64,000 nucleotides of DNA from a virus (Duplodnaviria; Caudoviricetes), in IMG/VR virus record IMGVR_UViG_3300049455_000007, positions 261 through 64,260 of that record. The stretch is one strand, 5' to 3'. This document shows, piece after piece, positions 4,783 to 64,000 of this stretch. Within the stretch, counting starts at the first letter, position 1. Each line of letters begins with the position of its first letter. The notes beneath the pieces were generated by a model. It saw only the letters and a program-made list of their open reading frames with translations, did not search any database and was not told the origin of the DNA. Both the position numbers and the translations under genes were made by a program.

Positions 4783-5088
4783 TTAGAAGAAGTCGGCTGG
4801 GTCACCATCACCGATCGCCTCCTCGGCGGCGTCGAAGTCGCCCTGATTGATGGCCTGCCGCACCTTTGCCCGGCGCTCCTCCGTGGTGGGCACGGGCTTC
4901 TCCCCGACGATGAGGCGCTGGCCATAGCCGGTGCCGAGACGGCCGACGCTGTTGTGCTGGAAGTGGTTTTCACAGAGGTAGGCCCACGGTCCTTCGTCGG
5001 TCTTGGCGTCATACAAAGCGTCGACCGGACCTTCGGGGTGGGGGTAATTGCACTTCGGTAGTTTGGTGACGTAGGCGGTGTCGCTCAT
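4783..5088 (-). CDS. hypothetical protein
   Basis: MSDTAYVTKLPKC..., RBS GAGAGGA. Confidence 0.7.
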   Translation of the reverse strand: MSDTAYVTKLPKCNYPHPEGPVDALYDAKTDEGPWAYLCENHFQHNSVGRLGTGYGQRLIVGEKPVPTTEERRAKVRQAINQGDFDAAEEAIGDGDPADFF

Positions 5089-5228
5089 GATGGTTCCTCT
5101 CTCTGGTTGGATTGTTCTTCCTCGTCGTCGAGCACCCGTTCCAGCAGGCGTCGGCCCCAAGGTGTTATGTGGTCCGGGCTAATCAGCCGGAGCGCGGCGC
5201 GGACACGGACAATGGTGTACTCACTCAT
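5085..5228 (-). CDS. small hypothetical protein (47 aa)
   Basis: MSEYTIVRVRAALRLISP..., RBS AAAGGA, ATGA overlaps at both ends. Confidence 0.55.
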   Translation of the reverse strand: MSEYTIVRVRAALRLISPDHITPWGRRLLERVLDDEEEQSNQREEPS

Positions 5229-9407: not shown

Positions 9408-9543
9408 GGATGCCCGTCTGGGTGGTGAGGCCGAGCGCGGCAATTGTCTTGGCCACTTCATCACGGACGGTGAGAAGCATCGCGAGTACATCAGGCCCCA
9501 TCGTGGATGACGGGACGATTACTGGGGGTGTGGTGGTAGCCAT
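9400..9543 (-). CDS. small hypothetical protein (47 aa)
   Basis: Manual ORF MATTTPPVIVPSS... Confidence 0.5.
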   Translation of the reverse strand: MATTTPPVIVPSSTMGPDVLAMLLTVRDEVAKTIAALGLTTQTGIHD

Positions 9544-9602
9544 GGAAAATGCCTGTCTGCGAGTGCGAATTAGGGGTGAACGCTGGTGGGTTACTGACAG
9601 TG

Positions 9603-9827
9603 TCAGTATGCGCCGCGCTGATAGGCAAGTTCCGCGTCGACATGGGTGAGGAAACGGTCGACGTATTCGTCCGCAACGTGGGTGTCACCGTTGCGGATCG
9701 CGGCCAGCGCAGTGGCCAGCAGCCAGCGCTGGGAGGCGAGCATCCCGTTCATGTGGGCACGCTTGGTTTCGATGTCGTCGATGGTGTGCGACATGCTGAT
9801 TTCGCGGGCAGTGAGGTCGGTAGCCAT
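9603..9827 (-). CDS. hypothetical protein
   Basis: MATDLTAREISM..., downstream of promoter 9917-9945. Confidence 0.65.
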   Translation of the reverse strand: MATDLTAREISMSHTIDDIETKRAHMNGMLASQRWLLATALAAIRNGDTHVADEYVDRFLTHVDAELAYQRGAY

Positions 9828-9861
9828 GATGATTCCGTTCTGTGGTTGGTAGCCCGGTCGG

Positions 9862-9879
9862 CAGATGGTCGACCAGTTG
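9862..9879. promoter_or_regulatory. 18-bp palindrome family copy 8
   Basis: CAGATGGTCGACCAGTTG, downstream of promoter. Confidence 0.8.
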
Positions 9880-9916
9880 GTGAGCGGGTTTTGGGCATAC
9901 CTCACCCGCTACTCTA

Positions 9917-9945
9917 AGCGTATCATGTTTGGGTAGAGATGTCAA
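9917..9945 (-). promoter_or_regulatory. sigma70/SigA-type early promoter
   Basis: TTGACA-17 bp-TACGCT. Confidence 0.75.
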
Positions 9946-9971
9946 GTCGTGGGAGGGGGCGGCCTCGCTCA

Positions 9972-10277
9972 TCACCAGCCCGGAGGACGGAGGTTCCGCT
10001 TATCGCTCACGTGCCATGACTGCGCAAGCAGTGCCCTGAAATGTACATCCCACTCCTCGTGTTGCTGTGCGTGGTGTTCATGCTTGGCATTGAGCGGGGT
10101 CAGATTGAACGTGCGGTTTGGTGGCGGGAAAGCCCGAGGGGGACGGACCGATTTCCTGATCCAATCCCACGCCTTGTCCATGACATGCGGCTGCTGTTCA
10201 TACGAGAACAGGACGGCCAAGAACAGTGGCGTGAACACGATGATGACGATAAGGGTGCCGATGATGGTGCCGATCAT
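9972..10277 (-). CDS. membrane protein
   Basis: N-terminal TM helix IIGTLIVIIVFTPLFLAVLF. Confidence 0.65.
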   Translation of the reverse strand: MIGTIIGTLIVIIVFTPLFLAVLFSYEQQPHVMDKAWDWIRKSVRPPRAFPPPNRTFNLTPLNAKHEHHAQQHEEWDVHFRALLAQSWHVSDKRNLRPPGW

Positions 10278-10660
10278 GACCCGCCCCTGATGTCGCGGTC
10301 ATACCAGTGGTTCGGCCCCCCGCACAGGTGGGCGGACAGGCCGTGCTCGCACACTTCCACCGCAGGCTCCGGCCATGGTGCGGAGTTGTAGCCGTCCTCC
10401 CATGCGTCGCACAGTTCCTGAATCTCCCAGTCAGCGGCACCATCGAAGGTGCTTGGGCCGGCAGTCCTGCCGTCCTCCCATACGTCGCCGTCCGACAGTG
10501 GTCTGGTTGACATCTCCACCACGTCGCGGGGAGTGATGGCCCCCGCCCATTCCCCTGACAGTGGCGACTCCTGCGGACTGACTTCACCAGCGGCGATGCC
10601 GTTGGTGGCGTACTCTAGACCGTTGCTCTTGGCCTTCGCCAGTTGTTCAAACCAGTCCAT
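10274..10660 (-). CDS. hypothetical protein
   Basis: RBS AAAGGAG; 128 aa. Confidence 0.75.
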   Translation of the reverse strand: MDWFEQLAKAKSNGLEYATNGIAAGEVSPQESPLSGEWAGAITPRDVVEMSTRPLSDGDVWEDGRTAGPSTFDGAADWEIQELCDAWEDGYNSAPWPEPAVEVCEHGLSAHLCGGPNHWYDRDIRGGS

Positions 10661-10700
10661 GACTGGCTCCTTTCGTTGGTTGGTAGCCTGATGAAATGGG

Positions 10701-10731
10701 GCAGGCGGGCGGCTACCAACGACCCGCCTGC
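10701..10731 (-). terminator. GC hairpin (terminator or switch) with GTTGGTAGCC loop
   Basis: Stem GCAGGCGGG/CCCGCCTGC directly after stop of 10739..10930; weak U tract. Confidence 0.55.
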
Positions 10732-10738
10732 GCCCGGT

Positions 10739-10930
10739 CTATGTGGCGGACGTACGACCGTCTTCGATACGGGCACGGAGGACAGGGTCGATCCTGTTCT
10801 GCAGGCTGGTGACCTGCGCCTCCGTGAGCATGTCCGAGTCGACGATGGCGGTCAGCGCATCATCAAGTTCCTGCGCGGTGTACGCCTCGGGATTCTTGGC
10901 GACGGCCTTGGCCTTGGTGAGCGACATCAT
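10739..10930 (-). CDS. hypothetical protein
   Basis: MMSLTKAKAVAKNP..., RBS GAGGAAG. Confidence 0.6.
   Translation of the reverse strand: MMSLTKAKAVAKNPEAYTAQELDDALTAIVDSDMLTEAQVTSLQNRIDPVLRARIEDGRTSAT
10747..10764. promoter_or_regulatory. 18-bp palindrome family copy 9
   Basis: CGGACGTACGACCGTCTT. Confidence 0.65.
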
Positions 10931-11163
10931 CACTTCCTCCCGTGGTGGATGAGGGTGCCGACGTGCTCGTGTGTGCCGCCACGCCGGAACATGATGCGCT
11001 CCCATGGGGCATCCCCATTGCCCATGCGAAGCCCGCAGTACGAGTGCTCCTTGCGCAGTTCCCGCATGGAAAACACCGGGTACTCGCCGTCATGCAGTGA
11101 CCACTCCGCACGGGAGACGTCACCTGCATGGCACTCGGGGCAGTCCTTCATGCGTGCCATCAC
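10930..11163 (-). CDS. hypothetical protein (CxxC)
   Basis: 77-aa ORF with overlap start. Confidence 0.6.
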   Translation of the reverse strand: MMARMKDCPECHAGDVSRAEWSLHDGEYPVFSMRELRKEHSYCGLRMGNGDAPWERIMFRRGGTHEHVGTLIHHGRK

Positions 11164-11342
11164 GCACCTGCCCTACGGGTGGCGCGGTGCTCGATGATGC
11201 TCTGCCATGCGTCGCACCCGTTCATGAGCAGGGACATGCGGGAACGGGCGGGACGGTGCGGGTCTGCGGCAACGTCCATCGCGGTGCGGAACCACCACAC
11301 CAGCGCAGCGTCAACGTCGGCGAATGTGCGCTCGTCCATCAC
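11160..11342 (-). CDS. hypothetical protein
   Basis: MDERTFADVDAALVWW..., GTGA overlap. Confidence 0.55.
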   Translation of the reverse strand: MMDERTFADVDAALVWWFRTAMDVAADPHRPARSRMSLLMNGCDAWQSIIEHRATRRAGA

Positions 11343-11500
11343 GCACCTGCCTTCGGGGAGTACGGGCACTCGCTGGTGCTGGCATGCCAGTGGTGGCACT
11401 CGTCGCACCAGAGCAGTGATGCGCCTGACGGGACGGTCGAAAGCGTGGCGACCCATGCGGTGAAGGGTGCGTCGAGGAGTGGTTTGCGGTTGGTAGCCAT
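11339..11500 (-). CDS. small hypothetical protein
   Basis: MATNRKPLLDAP..., RBS GAAGGA. Confidence 0.6.
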   Translation of the reverse strand: MATNRKPLLDAPFTAWVATLSTVPSGASLLWCDECHHWHASTSECPYSPKAGA

Positions 11501-11539
11501 GATGATTCCTTCGGGGTTGGGTTGGGTTGGTACGGGTGG

Positions 11540-11557
11540 CAGATGGGCGACCATCTG
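11540..11557. promoter_or_regulatory. 18-bp palindrome family copy 10
   Basis: CAGATGGGCGACCATCTG, intergenic. Confidence 0.8.
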
Positions 11558-11580
11558 CCACCCTCGGTTTGGTAGCCGGT

Positions 11581-11781
11581 CTATTTGGTGCCAGTGACCT
11601 TGCGGTTCTGGCTGTAGCGGATGATGACGTGCATGCTCGGGTCAGCGTCCGCATTGCGCTTGCTCATGTAGCGCCCGGTGCTGGGGTCGAGGAAGTCCTT
11701 GCCCTCGTTCCAGTCAGCCTTCGCCGCCTTCGCGGTGGTGTAGTCGCGGCCATATGCGGGGGTGACTTCGAACCATGCCAT
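11581..11781 (-). CDS. hypothetical protein
   Basis: MAWFEVTPAYGRDY..., RBS GGGAAG. Confidence 0.65.
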   Translation of the reverse strand: MAWFEVTPAYGRDYTTAKAAKADWNEGKDFLDPSTGRYMSKRNADADPSMHVIIRYSQNRKVTGTK

Positions 11782-11786
11782 GGCCG

Positions 11787-12176
11787 TTACTTCCCGTCCG
11801 TCAGGACGCCACGGAACACGTACCAGCCATCGCGGGCGGGGACGGCCAACTCCGTGTGCTCGTCCACGGTCGGGTAGCGCGTGGCTGTGCCCACGTACTC
11901 CACCCGTACGTTGGATGAGGCGACCTGCAGTTGCTTCCATGCCTGCGTCTTGTCCCATGCGGCCCACGCTTCCGTGGCGTGGACACCCTGCGGGTCCCCG
12001 CAGATTCGGTTGCCGTCGAGGTTGCAGTCCCAGCCGGGATCATCCTCGCTCATGGCGTGGGACACGGCGGGTGCGGGGGTGGGCGGTTGTGCCGCACCAG
12101 CGCTGGCCGTGAAGGCGATGATGCTGAGGCCGATGGATGCGGCGATGAGTGATGCGCGGTTCTGGTTGGTAGCCAT
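11787..12176 (-). CDS. secreted/membrane-anchored protein
   Basis: Signal-peptide-like N-terminus (SLIAASIGLSIIAFTASAGA) then EDDPGWDCNLDGNRICG. Confidence 0.7.
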   Translation of the reverse strand: MATNQNRASLIAASIGLSIIAFTASAGAAQPPTPAPAVSHAMSEDDPGWDCNLDGNRICGDPQGVHATEAWAAWDKTQAWKQLQVASSNVRVEYVGTATRYPTVDEHTELAVPARDGWYVFRGVLTDGK

Positions 12177-12206
12177 GTGGTGAGTCTTTCTGTGATGGGC
12201 CGACCG

Positions 12207-12224
12207 GAGACGGTCGACCAGTTG
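12207..12224. promoter_or_regulatory. 18-bp palindrome family copy 11
   Basis: GAGACGGTCGACCAGTTG, downstream of promoter. Confidence 0.8.
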
Positions 12225-12260
12225 CCGCCCTGCCAAAGGGCATGGAAGGGCGAAGTAACA

Positions 12261-12289
12261 ACATTACCGTATTTGACAAGGTTTGTCAA
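12261..12289 (-). promoter_or_regulatory. sigma70/SigA-type early promoter
   Basis: TTGACA-17 bp-TAATGT; second TTGACA 10 bp upstream. Confidence 0.75.
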
Positions 12290-12306
12290 GTCATGTCAAG
12301 TAGTGA

Positions 12307-12468
12307 CTAGGGCTTGGCGGCATGCACCGACCAGCCAGCGTCGCGGATGACGTGCTCCCACTCGTCCGCTCCGTCGTTGCGTACGCGGGACATGACGATC
12401 GTGTAGCCGCACCAGTAGCAGTGGTGCTCGTTGATGTAGGCGCAGCGGTCGCACCGGTCATCTTCCAT
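12307..12468 (-). CDS. small Cys-rich protein (53 aa)
   Basis: Manual ORF MEDDRCDRCAYINEHHCYWC..., RBS GGAGG. Confidence 0.55.
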   Translation of the reverse strand: MEDDRCDRCAYINEHHCYWCGYTIVMSRVRNDGADEWEHVIRDAGWSVHAAKP

Positions 12469-12473
12469 GAGGG

Positions 12474-12695
12474 TTACCTCCTTCCATGGTGGGAGACATC
12501 CTCGGCGAAGACGGATTCAGTGGTGCCGGTCCGGTACAGCGAGGTGCCTTCAGTGACTCTGAACGTGACAGCGGCTGACCTGCCGGAACCGATCACTGAC
12601 GTGACTACGCCCGTGACGGTTCCGCCCGTGACGCGTGGACGGTAGTCGATGACGTCACCGGAGTGGATGAGCGGACGGTCTGGGAAGAAGGACAT
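12474..12695 (-). CDS. hypothetical protein
   Basis: RBS TAGGA; 73 aa. Confidence 0.65.
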   Translation of the reverse strand: MSFFPDRPLIHSGDVIDYRPRVTGGTVTGVVTSVIGSGRSAAVTFRVTEGTSLYRTGTTESVFAEDVSHHGRR

Positions 12696-12837: not shown

Positions 12838-13620
12838 CTACGCCTTCAGGCTCGGGTAGACGTCGGCGAGGATAGCGCTGACCTCCTTGGCCACACCGGA
12901 CCATTCCTTGGTAGCGCGAAGGGCAAGGATCTGCTTGACCAAGAGCTTGGCCGTAGCCTTGACGTCATCCTGCAGGCTGGGGCCTGCGGGGGCCTCGGGG
13001 GCCTTGTCCGTACCCGTTGCGGCACCCTCCGGCAGGAGGGCTGACGTACCCGTGGCGGGGGCCTTGGGGGCCTCCACGGGGGCCTTGCCGTTCGCGGCCT
13101 TGAGGGCCTCCAGTTCGAGGGCCTTGGCTTCGAGCGCGGCCTTCTTCTCCTTCTCGACGAGCCGCTTGGCCTTCTGGTCAGCGCGGGAAGTTGCGTCGAA
13201 GGAACCCTCGACCAGCGCGACATCATCCGCGTCCGGCACAGACAGAAGGCCAGCGCGGTCCTTCACGTGCAAAGCCTGACCGGCCAGCGCATACGGCCGA
13301 AGCGTCCCTACAGGCATTCCGAGAACCTTCGCGGCACCCGTGATGTTATACGGGTAACGCTTCGTAGCAACAGCCTCATGCGTCGCCGTCCGGTAGGCGA
13401 TACGCGACATCCAAACAGCCGCAACAGCGCGGGCCTGAACGGCCGATTCGATGGCCTTGGTCTGGGAGTCGTGCTCGGCCCGCTCCTTGTCGAACGCGGC
13501 ACGTAGCGCGTCCAACGTGCCGGTCTGAAGGGTAGCGACGTCGACGACCGTGCCGTCAACGGGTGTGATGTCGGTTCCTGCGGGTGTTGCGGGTGTTGCG
13601 GGTGTTGTGTTGGTAGCCAA
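12838..13620 (-). CDS. Ala/Lys-rich hypothetical protein, first gene of early operon
   Basis: TTG start, MATNTTPATPATPA, RBS GGAAGG, followed by hairpin. Confidence 0.75.
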   Translation of the reverse strand: MATNTTPATPATPAGTDITPVDGTVVDVATLQTGTLDALRAAFDKERAEHDSQTKAIESAVQARAVAAVWMSRIAYRTATHEAVATKRYPYNITGAAKVLGMPVGTLRPYALAGQALHVKDRAGLLSVPDADDVALVEGSFDATSRADQKAKRLVEKEKKAALEAKALELEALKAANGKAPVEAPKAPATGTSALLPEGAATGTDKAPEAPAGPSLQDDVKATAKLLVKQILALRATKEWSGVAKEVSAILADVYPSLKA

Positions 13621-19423: not shown

Positions 19424-20106
19424 GGCCGTCAGTGAAGGGGGCTGACCTTATTGCCGCCGCAGCCGCTGGCGGGAATGCGGCATACCGGGACAGCGGGCTT
19501 ACTTGGGGAACCAGCGCCTCGGCCAACCAATGGACGCCCAACGGAACCGTAGCGGGTGACCTGCTGGTGTACTTCGTCTGGTCTGCCGGTACGACGGTGG
19601 TGGCCGGGCCGAATGCTCAGGGGGCTTGGGCACTGGCGGCTGCCACGTCCGGGGCTAACCTTCTTGGCACCGAGCAGAACCTTGCCGTGTACCTCAAGAC
19701 GGCCGTGGCAGCGGACGCTGGTTCAGGCAACCATCCCACTTTCACGCTCGGAGCCTCCGCCGACTGGTACGTGGCCAGTGTGGCAGTGTCCGGCTGGACG
19801 AAAGTGTCCGCCGCCGCGGTGGCACGGTCTGATTCATCGGGCACCCGCCTCGATTTCGGGGCGCTCCCGGGAATGCGGGCCGGTGACCTTGAGGTGTTCC
19901 TCGGGGCCGGTCGCGTAGGCAATCTGGAAGTCACTGTCGCAGGGGCCACGACCCGGCAAAAGCGGACCAACGATCCGAACCTGTCCATCGCCCTCGCCAC
20001 CGGCGCAGGCGCAATCTCTAACTTCGGCAGTCCCCTTCTTGGTGCCCACACGCTGGGCTCTGACTCGGCGACCAGTTGGATCATAGGCAGCGTATCCATC
20101 TCGTAA
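19420..20106 (+). CDS. fibre-associated minor structural protein
   Basis: GDLLVYFV pattern like the GDVLLMFV module in the fibre; Ala/Gly/Thr-rich. Confidence 0.65.
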   Translation: MRPSVKGADLIAAAAAGGNAAYRDSGLTWGTSASANQWTPNGTVAGDLLVYFVWSAGTTVVAGPNAQGAWALAAATSGANLLGTEQNLAVYLKTAVAADAGSGNHPTFTLGASADWYVASVAVSGWTKVSAAAVARSDSSGTRLDFGALPGMRAGDLEVFLGAGRVGNLEVTVAGATTRQKRTNDPNLSIALATGAGAISNFGSPLLGAHTLGSDSATSWIIGSVSIS

Positions 20107-58416: not shown

Positions 58417-58868
58417 GGCAATGCCTCCAGAATCCTTCGGATGGTCGGGTACATGTCCTCGTCCACACCCAAGTCGGACAGGATCGCCAGCACCTGATCT
58501 TTGGTCAGGTAACGCGGGTGTGGCCGGGCCAGCCGGGGACGGTATGGTGATTCCTCCCGGTCCTCGACGTAGCCCTTCAGCACATAGACCTGCTGGCCGC
58601 TTCGCCGCTCCTGCAACCGGGCAACACGATCGGCCCGGTGCAGGTGCGTAAGGGCGGAAGAGGCCGGGCCGTGGCCCAACGACAGGTGGTCCTCCACTTC
58701 CTTCACGGTCATGCCCGCCGTGGTGTGCGTGGCAAGGAGGGCGAACACCTGCGCCTGTCGCTTGCCCGTGATTCCCATACTGTCCTCACGCTCGGCCCGC
58801 TCCCGGGATGTCTCCGAGCCTGACCAGCCGCTTCCCTTGCTCCCGTACGGGATGATGCCTTCAGTCAT
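58413..58868 (-). CDS. winged-helix DNA-binding protein
   Basis: RQAQVFALL...GMTVKEVEDHLSLGHGPASSALTHL. Confidence 0.65.
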   Translation of the reverse strand: MTEGIIPYGSKGSGWSGSETSRERAEREDSMGITGKRQAQVFALLATHTTAGMTVKEVEDHLSLGHGPASSALTHLHRADRVARLQERRSGQQVYVLKGYVEDREESPYRPRLARPHPRYLTKDQVLAILSDLGVDEDMYPTIRRILEALP

Positions 58869-59743: not shown

Positions 59744-60170
59744 CAGTGACATCCACTTCCGCCGTGACGATTTCAATGTGCGTGTGCCACGTGAACGGGA
59801 ACTCCATCACCCATCCCGGGGCGTCCATGGAGTTGCCGTCCTCGTCGGCGTCACCGACCACAACGTAGTCACCAATCAGGGGCACGGTGAAGTCGGTGAG
59901 TTGCATCCCTTCGAGGGTGGCGTACAACTGCATGGCCCGCAGGTTGATGATGTCCGGGAGGTTTTCGCTGTCGAGGCGGAACAGGCCCTCGTCGTCGTAG
60001 AAGAATGAGAGGTGCTTGTCCCCGTCGCCGACGGTGGACATGGAGAACATGCCGCCGTTGCGGTTGCCGCCGAACACCAGCGCTGTCATCGACTTGTAGT
60101 CGTTGTTGGCATGGTCGGCCCAGCGCAGCGGCTGGGTCTTGTCCGACGGGATGATGATTGCCTTGGACAT
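59736..60170 (-). CDS. DUF3846-like protein
   Basis: MSKAIIIP...YDDEGL...NLRA...LIGDYVVVG. Confidence 0.6.
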   Translation of the reverse strand: MSKAIIIPSDKTQPLRWADHANNDYKSMTALVFGGNRNGGMFSMSTVGDGDKHLSFFYDDEGLFRLDSENLPDIINLRAMQLYATLEGMQLTDFTVPLIGDYVVVGDADEDGNSMDAPGWVMEFPFTWHTHIEIVTAEVDVTDD

Positions 60171-61457: not shown

Positions 61458-62278
61458 CGACGGTTCTCCGGTATCCATGAGTGCATCGGGTGGACGATCG
61501 ACTGGTTAGAGGGCTTCCAGCCCCTGCGTTCCGCATCCGTCTGCGCCCGGCGCATCCAGTTCCGCCATGTGGTTTCCCAATTCTTCTTCTTGCCCCCCTC
61601 CCCATGCCAGTAGTCCACGAACGCATCCGTCTCACGCTTGGCATTGATGGCGGGAGCGTGCTCTTTGGCCCACGCCTCCCGCTCGGGAGACAGTCCGAAC
61701 TCAGCCGGGACGGCATGCGCAGCCGCTGCCTTCGGGGCCTTCGATGGAGCGGCGCTACTAATGGATGGTTCATGGATGGTTAAAGGACGGTTTGTAGGAC
61801 ATCCGTGTCCGGCCTGAATGTCTCCAGTGTCCGGCCTAGATGTCTCAGATGTCCGCCCGGACACGGGTGACCGGTCACCCGTGTCCGCCCTGCCCCCCAG
61901 TTCTGGCCGGACACTGGTGTCCGGGCGGACATCCTGTCCCCCCAAGATTGGCTCCAAGATTTCCTGTCCGATGTGCTCGTCCGGGGTGGCCTCGACATCC
62001 AAGCACAGGTCCCAAACGATGGGCCTGCGGTTGGTCGGGATGTGCGCGACCATCTGCTGGTCACCGCGTTTGATGAGGCCCGCCGCCTCCAGTACGGCGA
62101 GCTTCCTGCGTACTGTTCGGGACGAGGTCCGTGCGTACGTTGCGAGCGTGTTCTGTGCGGCATACGCCACCGTGCCATCCTCGTGCGCATGATCGGCAAG
62201 GCCGACGAGGATAAGGGCTTCCACCGGGTCTGAGACGGGGGCCTTCTTCAAGGCCCAAACCATGGCTTCTATACTCAC
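61454..62278 (-). CDS. replication initiator (N-terminal HTH, lambda O-like architecture)
   Basis: LILVGLADHA...QNTLATYARTSSRTVRRKLAVLEAAGLIKR; central repeats; C-terminal WETTWRNW; upstream of helicase. Confidence 0.8.
   Translation of the reverse strand: MSIEAMVWALKKAPVSDPVEALILVGLADHAHEDGTVAYAAQNTLATYARTSSRTVRRKLAVLEAAGLIKRGDQQMVAHIPTNRRPIVWDLCLDVEATPDEHIGQEILEPILGGQDVRPDTSVRPELGGRADTGDRSPVSGRTSETSRPDTGDIQAGHGCPTNRPLTIHEPSISSAAPSKAPKAAAAHAVPAEFGLSPEREAWAKEHAPAINAKRETDAFVDYWHGEGGKKKNWETTWRNWMRRAQTDAERRGWKPSNQSIVHPMHSWIPENRR
61805..61925. repeat. iteron-like direct and inverted repeats (candidate origin)
   Basis: GTGTCCGGCCT at 61805 and 61827; perfect 30-bp palindrome 61858-61887; CCGGACAC-T-GGTGTCCGG. 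Confidence 0.65.
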
Positions 62279-62397
62279 TGCTGCTACTTGTCCCCTTAGT
62301 TGGTTGTGCGGTTGCTTCGTTGCACCGGTACCATAGGAGATACCCCCCCCTATGGGTCCTACCGGTTGAGTCACATCCGCACGGTTTGGTTGAAATC

Positions 62398-62434
62398 AAA
62401 AGCGCCCCTGCCGTCCAAAGCTGGGGGCGCTTTT
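62398..62434. terminator. bidirectional-type intrinsic terminator
   Basis: AAAAGCGCCCC/GGGGCGCTTTT. Confidence 0.75.
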
Positions 62435-62537
62435 TCATTTGGTTCCGATAGCCTATCGCAAGCGTTATGCCGCGCTTCTTGGTATGCTGGAGGTTCGGTT
62501 TACATTCAGAGGTTGGTAGCCAAAGGTTGTACCGAAC

Positions 62538-62576
62538 GACGAAGCCCCCGCCACTAAAACCGCCGGGGGCTTCGTC
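62538..62576 (-). terminator. 13-bp stem hairpin after 62587..62862
   Basis: GACGAAGCCCCCG/CGGGGGCTTCGTC. Confidence 0.65.
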
Positions 62577-62586
62577 ATGCCCGGGG

Positions 62587-62862
62587 TTAGTGGGAGGCGA
62601 ACTGTTCCCGGAGTTCCGGGAACTGGGTGAAGTATTCCTCCACCTTCCGTGCGGCCTTTTCAGACTCGGTCAGGCGGCGGGTGTAGTTGAGTCCCTGTTC
62701 CACGAACTTCGCCTCCGTGATCTGGTTCAGTTCGTCCCGGTGGTTGTTCAGCACCTCGCGCTCAGCCTCGTTGCGCAGACGGTTTTTTTTCTGCTGCACG
62801 GTTTCGTCCGTTACGACTTCCTCGTTGTCCGTAACGGGGGCTTCGATCGTTCCTGTTGCCAT
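62587..62862 (-). CDS. hypothetical protein (helical)
   Basis: RBS AGGAG; 91 aa. Confidence 0.7.
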   Translation of the reverse strand: MATGTIEAPVTDNEEVVTDETVQQKKNRLRNEAEREVLNNHRDELNQITEAKFVEQGLNYTRRLTESEKAARKVEEYFTQFPELREQFASH

Positions 62863-62903
62863 CGGTGGCTATCTCCTGATTGTTGTGTGGGTTATGTGGG
62901 TTG

Positions 62904-62921
62904 CAGACGGTCGACCATCTG
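62904..62921. promoter_or_regulatory. 18-bp palindrome family copy 24
   Basis: CAGACGGTCGACCATCTG, intergenic after SSB. Confidence 0.85.
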
Positions 62922-62932
62922 CGGATTGGCTA

Positions 62933-63487
62933 TCAGAAAGGCGGCTGTTGTCCGCCGCCGGGCCAGCCCTGCTCAGGCCATTGGCCCTGCTGTGGCTGCC
63001 CCTGCTGGGTATAGGCTGGCTGGCCCTGTGGCTGTCTGTACGGGGCTTGCACTTCAGGGTTGGGCCATCCGCCCTGCTGTGGCCGTTGGCCCGGCTGTGC
63101 GCCCTGTGGCGGCTGTCCCTGCACGGGCTGCTGGTCACTGTGAGGAGTGGCGCGGAACGTCAGGGAGGGGGAGATGCTCACCGCATCAATCTCTGTGGAC
63201 GTACGCTTCACACCATTGTGCTCGAAGTCGCGGTTATAGAACACGCCGACGACATGGACGAGGTCCTTATCGCGGACAGAGTTCACCAGATTCTCCGCAG
63301 GCTTGCGCCACAGGCTGGCGTTCGCCCAGAGAACCTTGTCCGGGTCGTCACCCCAGTTTCCCTGTGCGTCCTTCTTGCGTGCATTGCACACGAGGCGGAC
63401 GTTGGCGACGGGTACACCGTCAGGCGTGAAGCGGAGTACGGGGTCACCGACTACACGGAACTCTCCGAACATGGTGGGTAAGGCCAT
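62933..63487 (-). CDS. ssb: single-stranded DNA-binding protein
   Basis: DPVLRFTPDGVPVAN...WRKPAENLVNS; Gln/Gly/Pro tail ending PPF. Confidence 0.95.
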   Translation of the reverse strand: MALPTMFGEFRVVGDPVLRFTPDGVPVANVRLVCNARKKDAQGNWGDDPDKVLWANASLWRKPAENLVNSVRDKDLVHVVGVFYNRDFEHNGVKRTSTEIDAVSISPSLTFRATPHSDQQPVQGQPPQGAQPGQRPQQGGWPNPEVQAPYRQPQGQPAYTQQGQPQQGQWPEQGWPGGGQQPPF

Positions 63488-63490
63488 AGG

Positions 63491-63784
63491 TTATAGGTCC
63501 CCTTTCTGGGATTGTTCCCACGTGAAATATACATCGCCGTATCGGATACCGTCGTGTTCTACCGTGGAGTTTCTGACAGCGACCACGATGTGGCCGGTGT
63601 CCTGCACGAACGGGTGGCGGGTGTATCCTCGAACGGATTTCACGCGCGACTCAGGTACGTGGCTGGCGGCAAGGACTGCCTCATCGGGATGCTTGGCCGC
63701 AAGATTCGCTGCGGCATCCCAGTCGTAGTCCTCGCCACGGGATGCACGTGGCGGCAGTTTGCCGACTAGCTTCCCTTGTGTCAT
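63491..63784 (-). CDS. hypothetical protein
   Basis: MTQGKLVGKLP..., RBS AGGAG. Confidence 0.65.
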   Translation of the reverse strand: MTQGKLVGKLPPRASRGEDYDWDAAANLAAKHPDEAVLAASHVPESRVKSVRGYTRHPFVQDTGHIVVAVRNSTVEHDGIRYGDVYFTWEQSQKGDL

Positions 63785-63930
63785 GTGTGTTGCTCTCCTC
63801 TGGGTGGGGGGCGGTGGCCGCGCTTCGTGCGCGGCCCCCGCCGGATCACTCTTTACAAGTCTACCATTGTTCTTGCCAACAGTAGACATTCTTCCGCTAG
63901 GAAATGTGGCCAGTTTCGACAAGGCCAAGA

Positions 63931-63969
63931 TCGCGCAGGGGCGGCTACCAACCAAAGACCCCTGCGCGA
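63931..63969 (-). terminator. GC hairpin with GTTGGTAGCC loop
   Basis: TCGCGCAGGGG/CCCCTGCGCGA 11-bp stem; resembles 10701-10731. Confidence 0.55.
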
Positions 63970-64000
63970 CCTTTACCCGGTCGAGGGATTAGTCCTCCTC

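Follow-up and report, generated by a model that had tools for sequence, protein, structure and literature searches.

The 64,000-nucleotide (nt) stretch analysed here, referred to as the window (positions 261 to 64,260 of IMG/VR virus record IMGVR_UViG_3300049455_000007, a member of the Caudoviricetes), carries on its leftward strand two stable stem-loops, H1 (10698–10735) and H2 (63929–63971), each of which presents in its loop GUUGGUAGCC, the exact antisense of a motif, GGCTACCAAC, that recurs at the starts and in the leaders of early genes. The arrangement at H1 had been described in an earlier note, and the observation is real and stronger than first described. The hairpin, its loop, the complementary segment downstream, the Shine–Dalgarno (SD) sequence and the ATG all hold at their coordinates upon re-reading of the sequence, and an almost invariant loop carried on covarying stems recurs in related phages. 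The reading favoured here, albeit only tentatively, is that the loops pair with the motif in translation-initiation regions, in cis and/or in trans.

The virus record comprises 64,260 bp with terminal repeats and is in effect a complete circle (IMG/VR); its large terminase subunit (TerL) is ~62 % identical to that of Arthrobacter siphophages such as SilentRX and Tank. Among sequencing runs, the phage is listed for a single soil DNA run, probably its source, and for no RNA run. Structural and lysis genes are transcribed rightward from ~14.1 to 51.1 kb, while a continuous leftward arm of ~27 kb runs from 13,620 through position 1/64,000 to 51,228, with H1 lying 2.9 kb into it. The motif occurs in 10 exact copies in the window against 0.11 expected, a number that none of 100 shuffles reaches. 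Eight of the copies are in the sense orientation on the leftward strand and two (10711–10720 and 63943–63952, the loop segments of H1 and H2) are antisense; the sense copies are confined to the leftward arm, and no exact copy occurs in the 37-kb late operon. With the one-mismatch copies found at gene starts (9816, 9532, 7796, 11568, 53368 and 60211), the sense copies come to ~14, close to the roughly 13 sites counted in the earlier note.

Relatives were gathered in three ways, by the protein encoded downstream of H1, by the terminase and, from metagenomes, by the protein encoded downstream of H2. Phages with a TerL identity of at least 82 % are referred to as the clade, and the labels G001, G002, G004, G005 and L267–L272 denote related genomes or contigs. 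All relatives above this threshold carry the motif with the same orientation bias; it is absent from 17 more distant relatives, including SilentRX and Tank, apart from isolated copies, one in G008 and two in G015. When viral contigs were scanned with a 14-nt pattern, most matches were due to chance and only those in G003 and G004 were real, and megablast of the region 9500–12500 yielded no cultured-phage match.

H1 is a GC-rich hairpin that starts 3 nt past the stop codon (TAG, 10741–10739) of the upstream reading frame. Its 9-bp stem (10731–10723/10709–10701) is extended by the pair U10722–G10710 and, past the bulged C10732, by three further pairs (GGG 10735–10733/CCC 10700–10698). The 11-nt loop (10721–10711) contains the anti-motif at 10711–10720, adjoining the 3′ arm. 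Spaced 22 nt from it is the sense motif, GGCUACCAAC, at 10679–10688, with which the anti-motif forms a perfect 10-bp complement, and which lies 18 nt before ATG 10660, the SD sequence AAAGGAG (10673–10667) and the start codon (10660–10658) following on the same strand. This 91-nt region folds at −38.1 kcal/mol (z = −3.2; one of 200 shuffles is as good), the H1 hairpin alone accounting for −27.4 kcal/mol. H1 has no U tract, its tail being CCCCAUUUCAU, and it is not in the terminator scan list. No promoter was found between the upstream stop codon and H1, which thus lacks a promoter of its own, and the sequence lends no support to the processed RNA considered in the earlier note; the next two genes (10660–9972) need read-through of H1, because there is no promoter between H1 and gene 10660 either.

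H2 consists of a 13-bp stem and a 17-nt loop, has nine orthologues and folds at −49.9 kcal/mol (z = −5.0). It starts 2 nt past the stop codon (TAA, 63975–63973) of a 204-aa gene that spans the window ends, and its anti-motif (63943–63952) is preceded in the loop by the pyrimidine-rich UCUUUG. Like H1, it has no U tract in the window (tail GAUCUUGG) and is not in the terminator scan list. Immediately after H2 follows a promoter-like element (63850–63900, leftward), a GTCTAC … GTAGAC inverted repeat that is kept in every relative, even in G002, which has an extra gene in between. Within it, the −10-like TAGACT (63858–63863) of a putative promoter matches the consensus and is kept in the window, G005, G002 and L267–L272; the predicted promoter would drive a 97-aa gene, the SSB gene and a 91-aa gene. 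Since H2 lies directly upstream of this element, it appears to mark the end of the first early block (13.9 kb). In the distant relatives G007, G008 and Tank the 97-aa and SSB genes are present, and H2 and the motif are absent.

The conservation of loop and stem that the earlier note had named as a check is found in the relatives. Thirteen hairpins were collected from about ten phage genomes or contigs, namely H1 of the window, G001 and G005, and H2 of the window, G005, G004, G002 and L267–L272. The 10-nt loop segment GUUGGUAGCC is identical in 12 of the 13, while the stems vary by compensatory changes. Moreover, every antisense copy in the clade lies in the loop of a strong hairpin (window 2/2, G005 2/2, G001 1/1, G004 1/1, L267–L272 6/6). 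Only 0.7–0.9 % of background 10-mers lie wholly within a 10–18-nt loop closed by a perfect stem of at least 9 bp, a setting shared by both antisense copies of the window and by none of its eight sense copies. In the H2 alignment (seven distinct sequences) 96 % of cells are paired, three pairs are changed on both sides, and one pair appears as UA, CG and GC; the covariation score of 0.314 compares with 0.18 in shuffles, is reached in none of 500, and falls to 0.13 or less when the register is slid by 1–3 columns. The H1 orthologues in G001 and G005 add one GC-to-AU compensatory pair and one wobble change (three sequences). The combination of covarying stems with an invariant loop indicates that the hairpin is a selected structure and that its loop is under selection for sequence.

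The functional strand is fixed by the H2 orthologues of G005, L270 and L271, in which a tail of U6–7 is found on the side of the leftward transcript, with no A tract on the other side; these three are, as judged from their sequence, canonical intrinsic terminators of a leftward RNA, which would accordingly display the antisense of the motif. The opposite-strand reading, in which the loops would hold the sense motif, was considered and ruled out, because the U tails occur on the leftward side only. As U tracts are lacking from H1 and H2 of the window, these are termed terminator-type stem-loops, and termination itself is not claimed for them. They share with Rho-independent terminators a GC-rich stem-loop after a stop codon, the position of H2 directly before the next promoter and the U tails of three orthologues, but differ in the absence of a U tract and in having loops of 11–19 nt whose sequence is invariant, which terminators do not require.

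The anatomy of the loops is informative with respect to a possible partner. The anti-motif always adjoins the 3′ arm, with one nucleotide between them (two in G001), whereas the 5′ part of the loop is variable, comprising 1–7 nt of which 78 % are pyrimidines (nine distinct versions); such a pyrimidine-rich segment is complementary to leaders on their SD side, which is rich in purines. Most loops have a G just before the anti-motif, the counterpart of a C found directly after the majority of sense copies (GGCUACCAAC(C)), and the core thus comprises 11 nt, (G)GUUGGUAGCC. The longest complementarity to a leader of the same genome is 17 nt for H1 of G005, 16 for H2 of G005, 13–14 for H2 of the window, 13 for H1 of G001 and exactly 10 for H1 of the window. 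Of these extensions, that of G005 alone clearly exceeds chance (roughly 10^-3 to 10^-2), and even this is no more than suggestive, because copies within a genome may share descent. Predicted duplex energies amount to −16.7 kcal/mol for the 10-mer, −20.0 for the 11-mer and −30.6 for the 17-mer of G005, while opening the anti-motif costs 2–3 kcal/mol. A YUNR U-turn had also been proposed for the H1 loop; UUGG does occur there, but a pattern expected at about one position in 16 is not informative enough to serve as evidence.

On the sense side, the copies fall into two positional classes, beginning either at the G of the start codon, and thus forming codons 2–4, or in the leader, 15–18 nt before the start and just 5′ of the SD sequence. 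In the first class (all copies leftward), codons 2–4 read Ala-Thr-Asn at 13609–13618 (after TTG 13620 of a 260-aa gene), 12165–12174 (after ATG 12176) and 11489–11498 (after ATG 11500), and the copy at 1508–1517 is shifted by two codons, covering codons 3–6 of a 308-aa gene (ATG 1525). The leader class includes, besides 10679–10688, the copies at 9845–9854, 17 nt before ATG 9827, which is itself followed by a one-mismatch copy (9816–9825), and at 2599–2608, 17 nt before ATG 2581. The remaining copy (62512–62521) is non-coding. Many early proteins start with Met-Ala-Thr-(Asn/Asp/Thr), as at 9532–9543, 9816–9827, 11489–11500, 12165–12176 and 13609–13620, because the motif or a near copy forms codons 2–4; it is the nucleic-acid motif that dictates the peptide. 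The motif-bearing genes have no Pfam matches, and the PHROGs they match are all of unknown function. The motif was ruled out as a sigma-70-type promoter or transcription start, as there is no conserved −10 at a fixed distance and copies follow the ATG with the SD sequence upstream.

Taken as a system, H1 would lie inside the first early block and H2 at its end, two hairpins per genome whose loops each present (G)GUUGGUAGCC to a target, GGCUACCAAC(C), carried by about a dozen early genes. In RNA that reads through H1, the loop would pair in cis with the copy 22 nt further on, giving rise to a partial H-type pseudoknot beside the SD sequence of gene 10660. At the 3′ ends of transcripts, or as stable decay products, H1 and H2 may act in trans, their loops base-pairing with the other copies and blocking the ribosome-binding regions there, and the labelled subset of early genes would thereby be regulated jointly, most simply by repression. 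The pairing, its sign and the balance between cis and trans are predicted here from the observed structure, conservation, strand and complementarity. Among the options raised in the earlier note, that of a loop pairing in trans with many sites appears to fit the data best, given eight exact and ~6 near copies at starts and in leaders and a complementarity that reaches 12–17 nt for some leaders. Use in trans would be needed because eight H2 copies lack a nearby partner, and the persistence of their loops implies that something besides a neighbouring partner constrains the sequence.

Several observations weigh against such pairing. The anti-motif is partly self-complementary (GGUU/AGCC). Loop and motif show no co-variation, both being constant in the clade, and the variant loop of G002 leaves 7 bp while the sense copies of that phage are unchanged. 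The one-mismatch sense variants at starts gave a mixed result, with no enrichment for wobble-compatible changes, and the accessibility of the sense copies, computed from local partition functions, exceeds the background only modestly, lying at the 55th to 90th percentile, near that of 10-mers of equal composition. The missing U tracts of both window hairpins mean that terminated 3′ ends are not assured. At H1, the 1–2 nt before the anti-motif are probably too few for a full 10-bp second stem, and hairpin and sense copy, being 32 nt apart, are co-inherited regardless of function.

The first alternative, which we consider unlikely, confines the function to cis: the H1 loop would pair only with the copy 22 nt downstream, a pseudoknot would tune the translation or stability of gene 10660 in the manner of the ColIb-P9 repZ pseudoknot or of lambda sib-type structures specific to read-through RNA, and the other copies would be unrelated. 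The cassette of hairpin, spacer, motif, SD sequence and ATG is indeed kept at H1 in the window (spacer 22 nt), G001 (23 nt) and G005 (25 nt, with two tandem copies), the H1 partner being retained in three of three, and it stands before different genes. In G001 a zinc-ribbon-like gene follows the cassette and the 10660 orthologue comes next, without the motif; likewise, in G002 and G003/G004, where H1 is absent, the 10660 orthologue lacks the motif. A comparable layout is found at H2 in two relatives. In G002 (contig 19557–19566), the variant loop GGGGGUAGCC, with two changes, is followed after ~20 nt by a degenerate sense copy, AGTTACCAACC, an SD sequence and a 139-aa gene, and in G004 H2 likewise stands ~20 nt before a degenerate sense copy and a gene start. 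These H2 cases, together with the cassette at H1 in three phages, suggest that the cis arrangement is probably ancestral. A remnant of the 3′ end of the 139-aa gene is still visible after H2 of the window (63900–63930).

However, a switch acting only in cis, as the earlier note proposed, is not general. The H2 partner is kept in only two of ten cases, both of them degenerate, and the other eight H2 hairpins retain the loop unchanged with no sense copy within ~1.4 kb, the 139-aa gene and its sense copy having been lost; about a dozen further start copies would need a separate explanation, and the 32-nt linkage accounts for the co-inheritance at H1 without any function. The proposal of two competing stems fails on energy, as the fold with the loop–motif stem enforced reaches −23.6 kcal/mol against −36.2 unconstrained, 12.6 kcal/mol worse. 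The H-type pseudoknot fares better in part: the complementary segments exist, the connector of 22–25 nt is ample, and the anti-motif occupies the 3′ side of the loop as in classical knots of this type. Nevertheless, a full 10-bp second stem is sterically doubtful with a first loop of 1–2 nt, the length found in the window, G001 and G004 (3–7 nt in the others), and, from the general geometry of such knots, at most a partial second stem seems feasible at window H1.

An alternative that we regard as comparably improbable places the function in DNA, with GGCTACCAAC as the asymmetric site of a conserved phage or host DNA-binding protein that acts as a stoperator-like roadblock inside early operons, and the hairpins as ordinary terminators that happen to carry a reversed site. 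The strict orientation bias and the placement at gene boundaries resemble the stoperators of Cluster A phages (for the contrast see PMC3203893), the motif stays constant while other repeats change, and G002 has kept its sense copies though its only hairpin loop diverged. Against this, a DNA site gives no reason why 13 of 13 reversed sites should lie in the loops of covarying stems, and it leaves unexplained the complementarity of the loops into the SD-side flank. The sites also track start codons at two fixed offsets, not promoters, they are absent from the 37-kb late operon, and no candidate binding protein was identified.

Pairing with labelled initiation regions also has to be set against the view, which we judge very unlikely, that the complementarity has no function, the loop being kept because something else binds it, for instance an RNA-binding protein or a processing nuclease, and the match having arisen incidentally through inverted duplication, template switching or recombination at a mosaic junction. 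Window and G001 are similar up to the motif and no further, as they would be at such a junction, and the anti-motif is capable of folding into a small capping helix. The helix of H2 is extendable (63913–63984), reaching ~25 bp with internal loops, and its outermost pairs are compensatory (UCGAC/GUCGA in the window, CUCAG/CUGAG in L268 at ~5065–5150); as judged from this fold, the extended helix is reminiscent of RNase III-type processing hairpins. On the other hand, accident is a very unlikely source of an exact 10–11-nt match to the oligomer that is most over-represented in the genome, the match persists in H2 hairpins that have no nearby partner for template-switch correction, and the same logic is found with an unrelated sequence in Cluster K1 mycobacteriophages, as described below.

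Hardly more credible is antitermination, in which a sense motif in nascent or free RNA would capture the loop before the 3′ arm is made and turn it into a rigid duplex, so that the hairpin fails to close and H1 or H2 is read through when the upstream initiation regions are free of ribosomes: genes 10660–9972 do need read-through, sense copies lie upstream on the same transcript and some H2 orthologues appear to be true terminators before the next operon, but the capture window is very short (~13 nt of synthesis), stems of −25 to −30 kcal/mol outcompete a duplex of −17 kcal/mol, the window hairpins, lacking U tracts, may leave little termination to relieve, and capture of the loop only has no precedent known to us.

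Pairing between an exposed loop and repeated initiation regions would not be without parallels among known RNA regulators. The c4 RNA of P1/P7 and the CI RNA of P4 are discrete RNAs that are processed by RNase P and serve immunity. They resemble the window system in being phage RNA elements that derive from the same transcript as their targets, expose a segment complementary to repeated sites near the ribosome-binding site or leader and control downstream expression; the window element differs in being a stem-loop right after a stop codon, with no known processing signal, about a dozen targets and no sign of a use in immunity. In ColIb-P9, the repZ pseudoknot rests on a pairing of 6–7 nt, activates translation, depends on translation of a leader peptide and is blocked by a separate antisense RNA, and a UUGGCG loop motif is shared by the antisense systems of IncI, IncB and IncFII plasmids. 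As in repZ, a hairpin loop that starts with UUGG would pair just 5′ of the SD sequence of the downstream gene, whereas the window complement extends over 10–11 nt, is repeated at many genes and, at most H2 hairpins, has no partner in cis. Staphylococcus aureus RNAIII, including its terminator hairpin H14, and related small RNAs of Gram-positive bacteria repress the translation of several mRNAs through C-rich loops that pair with their ribosome-binding regions. Here, too, the loops of stable hairpins, that of a terminator included, would face ribosome-binding regions; the difference is that RNAIII is a dedicated RNA with generic anti-SD UCCC loops, while in the window a 10-nt label beside the SD sequence is matched by hairpins within the 3′ ends of mRNAs. 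The stoperators of Cluster A phages (the sites of L5 gp71) are genome-wide and bound by the immunity repressor. They are likewise asymmetric sites found in operons and at gene boundaries in one orientation relative to transcription, but the window sites are limited to the early arm, keep fixed offsets from start codons and occur reversed only in hairpin loops. On computational grounds, the system is best described as a putative variety of phage antisense control. The literature yielded no account of such hairpins in Arthrobacter-type phages, and the 10-mer appears in the literature only within unrelated primers and constructs.

The genes flanking H1 offer little by way of function. The upstream reading frame (10739–10930, leftward) encodes 63 aa from ATG 10930, is of unknown function and has no family match, and the downstream gene (10274–10660, leftward) encodes 128 aa, also of unknown function, with no PHROG or Pfam match. 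No Rfam family reached its gathering score in the window, the sole hit being a chance-level match in 62200–64000.

The non-coding sense copy at 62512–62521 lies within a conserved 3′-UTR (untranslated region) element (62393–62573, leftward) that follows the 91-aa gene and is kept in G002, G004, G005, L267, L268 and L270. In order, the element comprises a terminator-like hairpin (62541–62573), the sense motif in a loop closed by TTCGG/CCGAA, and a canonical terminator (62402–62430) with a U tract. Conservation extends over ~28 nt around this type of motif copy, and a scan with a 17-base pattern matched known clade members only. As read from its sequence, the element may represent a small RNA or serve as a decoy for the reader of the motif. 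A palindrome hairpin of G002 (contig ~31141, minus strand), TATCGGGCGACC … GGTCGCCCGATA, has one sense copy in its loop, and display of the motif in a loop can thus apparently occur in the sense orientation as well.

Each of the related phages has an abundant palindrome or hairpin family of its own at gene boundaries, that of the window being the 16-bp AGACGGTCGACCGTCT; the palindromes differ in G005, G002, G008, G007 and Tank, and the start motif is constant within the close clade. Their sequences suggest that these families form an operator or hairpin system that evolves fast and is distinct from the motif. The motif as a half-site of 18-bp palindromes was ruled out, because the shared ACCAAC is found only in the palindrome family of G005 and the palindromes of the window differ. 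The constancy of the motif across the clade while the palindrome family changes from phage to phage implies that the motif has a conserved partner.

A comparable class of motifs has been described in Cluster K mycobacteriophages, whose start-associated sequence (SAS) is an asymmetric 13-mer present in 11–19 copies, in one orientation and at a subset of gene starts; its function was unknown and its partner, RNA or protein, was left open (Pope et al. 2011, PMC3203893). The SAS consensus, GGGATAGGAGCCC, includes the SD sequence and lies 3–9 bp before the start codon (PMC3203893). Its role is still undefined in recent papers of 2024–2025 (PMC11373665, PMC12699233). The SAS and the window motif have in common that they are short, asymmetric, present in 10–20 copies, nearly always in one orientation, placed at the starts of some of the non-structural genes and restricted to a single phage cluster, and that inverted repeats often lie just upstream. 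They differ in sequence, which is unrelated, in host lineage and phage family, and in position, as the window motif stands 15–18 nt before the start, 5′ of the SD sequence, or in codons 2–4. The window motif is thus not a member of the SAS family, because both sequence and offsets differ.

Of a copy in the opposite orientation, Pope et al. note only that it is not at a gene start (PMC3203893). This single reversed SAS of Cluster K1 genomes was located at 59870–59882 in Anaya and 58682–58694 in Adephagia, where a hairpin of 55 nt (z = −3.6 and −6.3, respectively; Anaya JF704106 59847–59901, L291:1478–1532; Adephagia JF704105 58659–58713, L299:360–414) carries it as its 10–11-nt apical loop, CCUCCUAUCC(C). 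The apical loop, CCUCCUAUCCC, contains an anti-SD stretch. The hairpin lies in the non-coding gap between genes 92 and 93, a region present in 128 phage records, and late transcription has been reported to start in this gp92–93 gap (PMC11373665). Across nine diverse K1 members, two of the 16 predicted pairs are compensatory, no member has a broken outer stem, and eight retain the loop. In other Cluster K phages the picture varies: the reversed copy of ZoeJ is the ordinary SAS of a leftward gene, that of Kratio is a two-mismatch match inside a gene, and no reversed SAS was found in Pixie and Unicorn. Judged by sequence and fold, two unrelated actinophage lineages with unrelated start motifs each have a conserved hairpin that shows the antisense of its own motif near an operon boundary.

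These parallels raise the possibility, which we regard as doubtful and put forward with more reserve than pairing in the window phage, that actinobacteriophage start motifs are address labels read by a phage-encoded hairpin-loop RNA at an operon boundary, which would switch a set of genes at a defined time. The loop would carry the label in antisense, in some cases along with an anti-SD stretch, and would pair with all labelled initiation regions. Such logic may have arisen independently in the soil-phage clade, with GGCUACCAAC and the loops of H1 and H2, and in Cluster K1, with the SAS and the hairpin of the gp92–93 gap.

Since 2011, phage genomes have yielded short motifs linked to gene starts for which neither partner nor function was known, and here a candidate partner is visible in the genome itself. 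If the pairing is true, it would represent a compact form of post-transcriptional co-regulation, in which labelled early genes are controlled via the 3′ ends of the phage's own early messages. The K1 parallel makes the idea directly testable in cultured, engineerable phages for which RNA-seq data already exist, and if the address-label reading holds, the SAS puzzle, open since 2011, would be explained.

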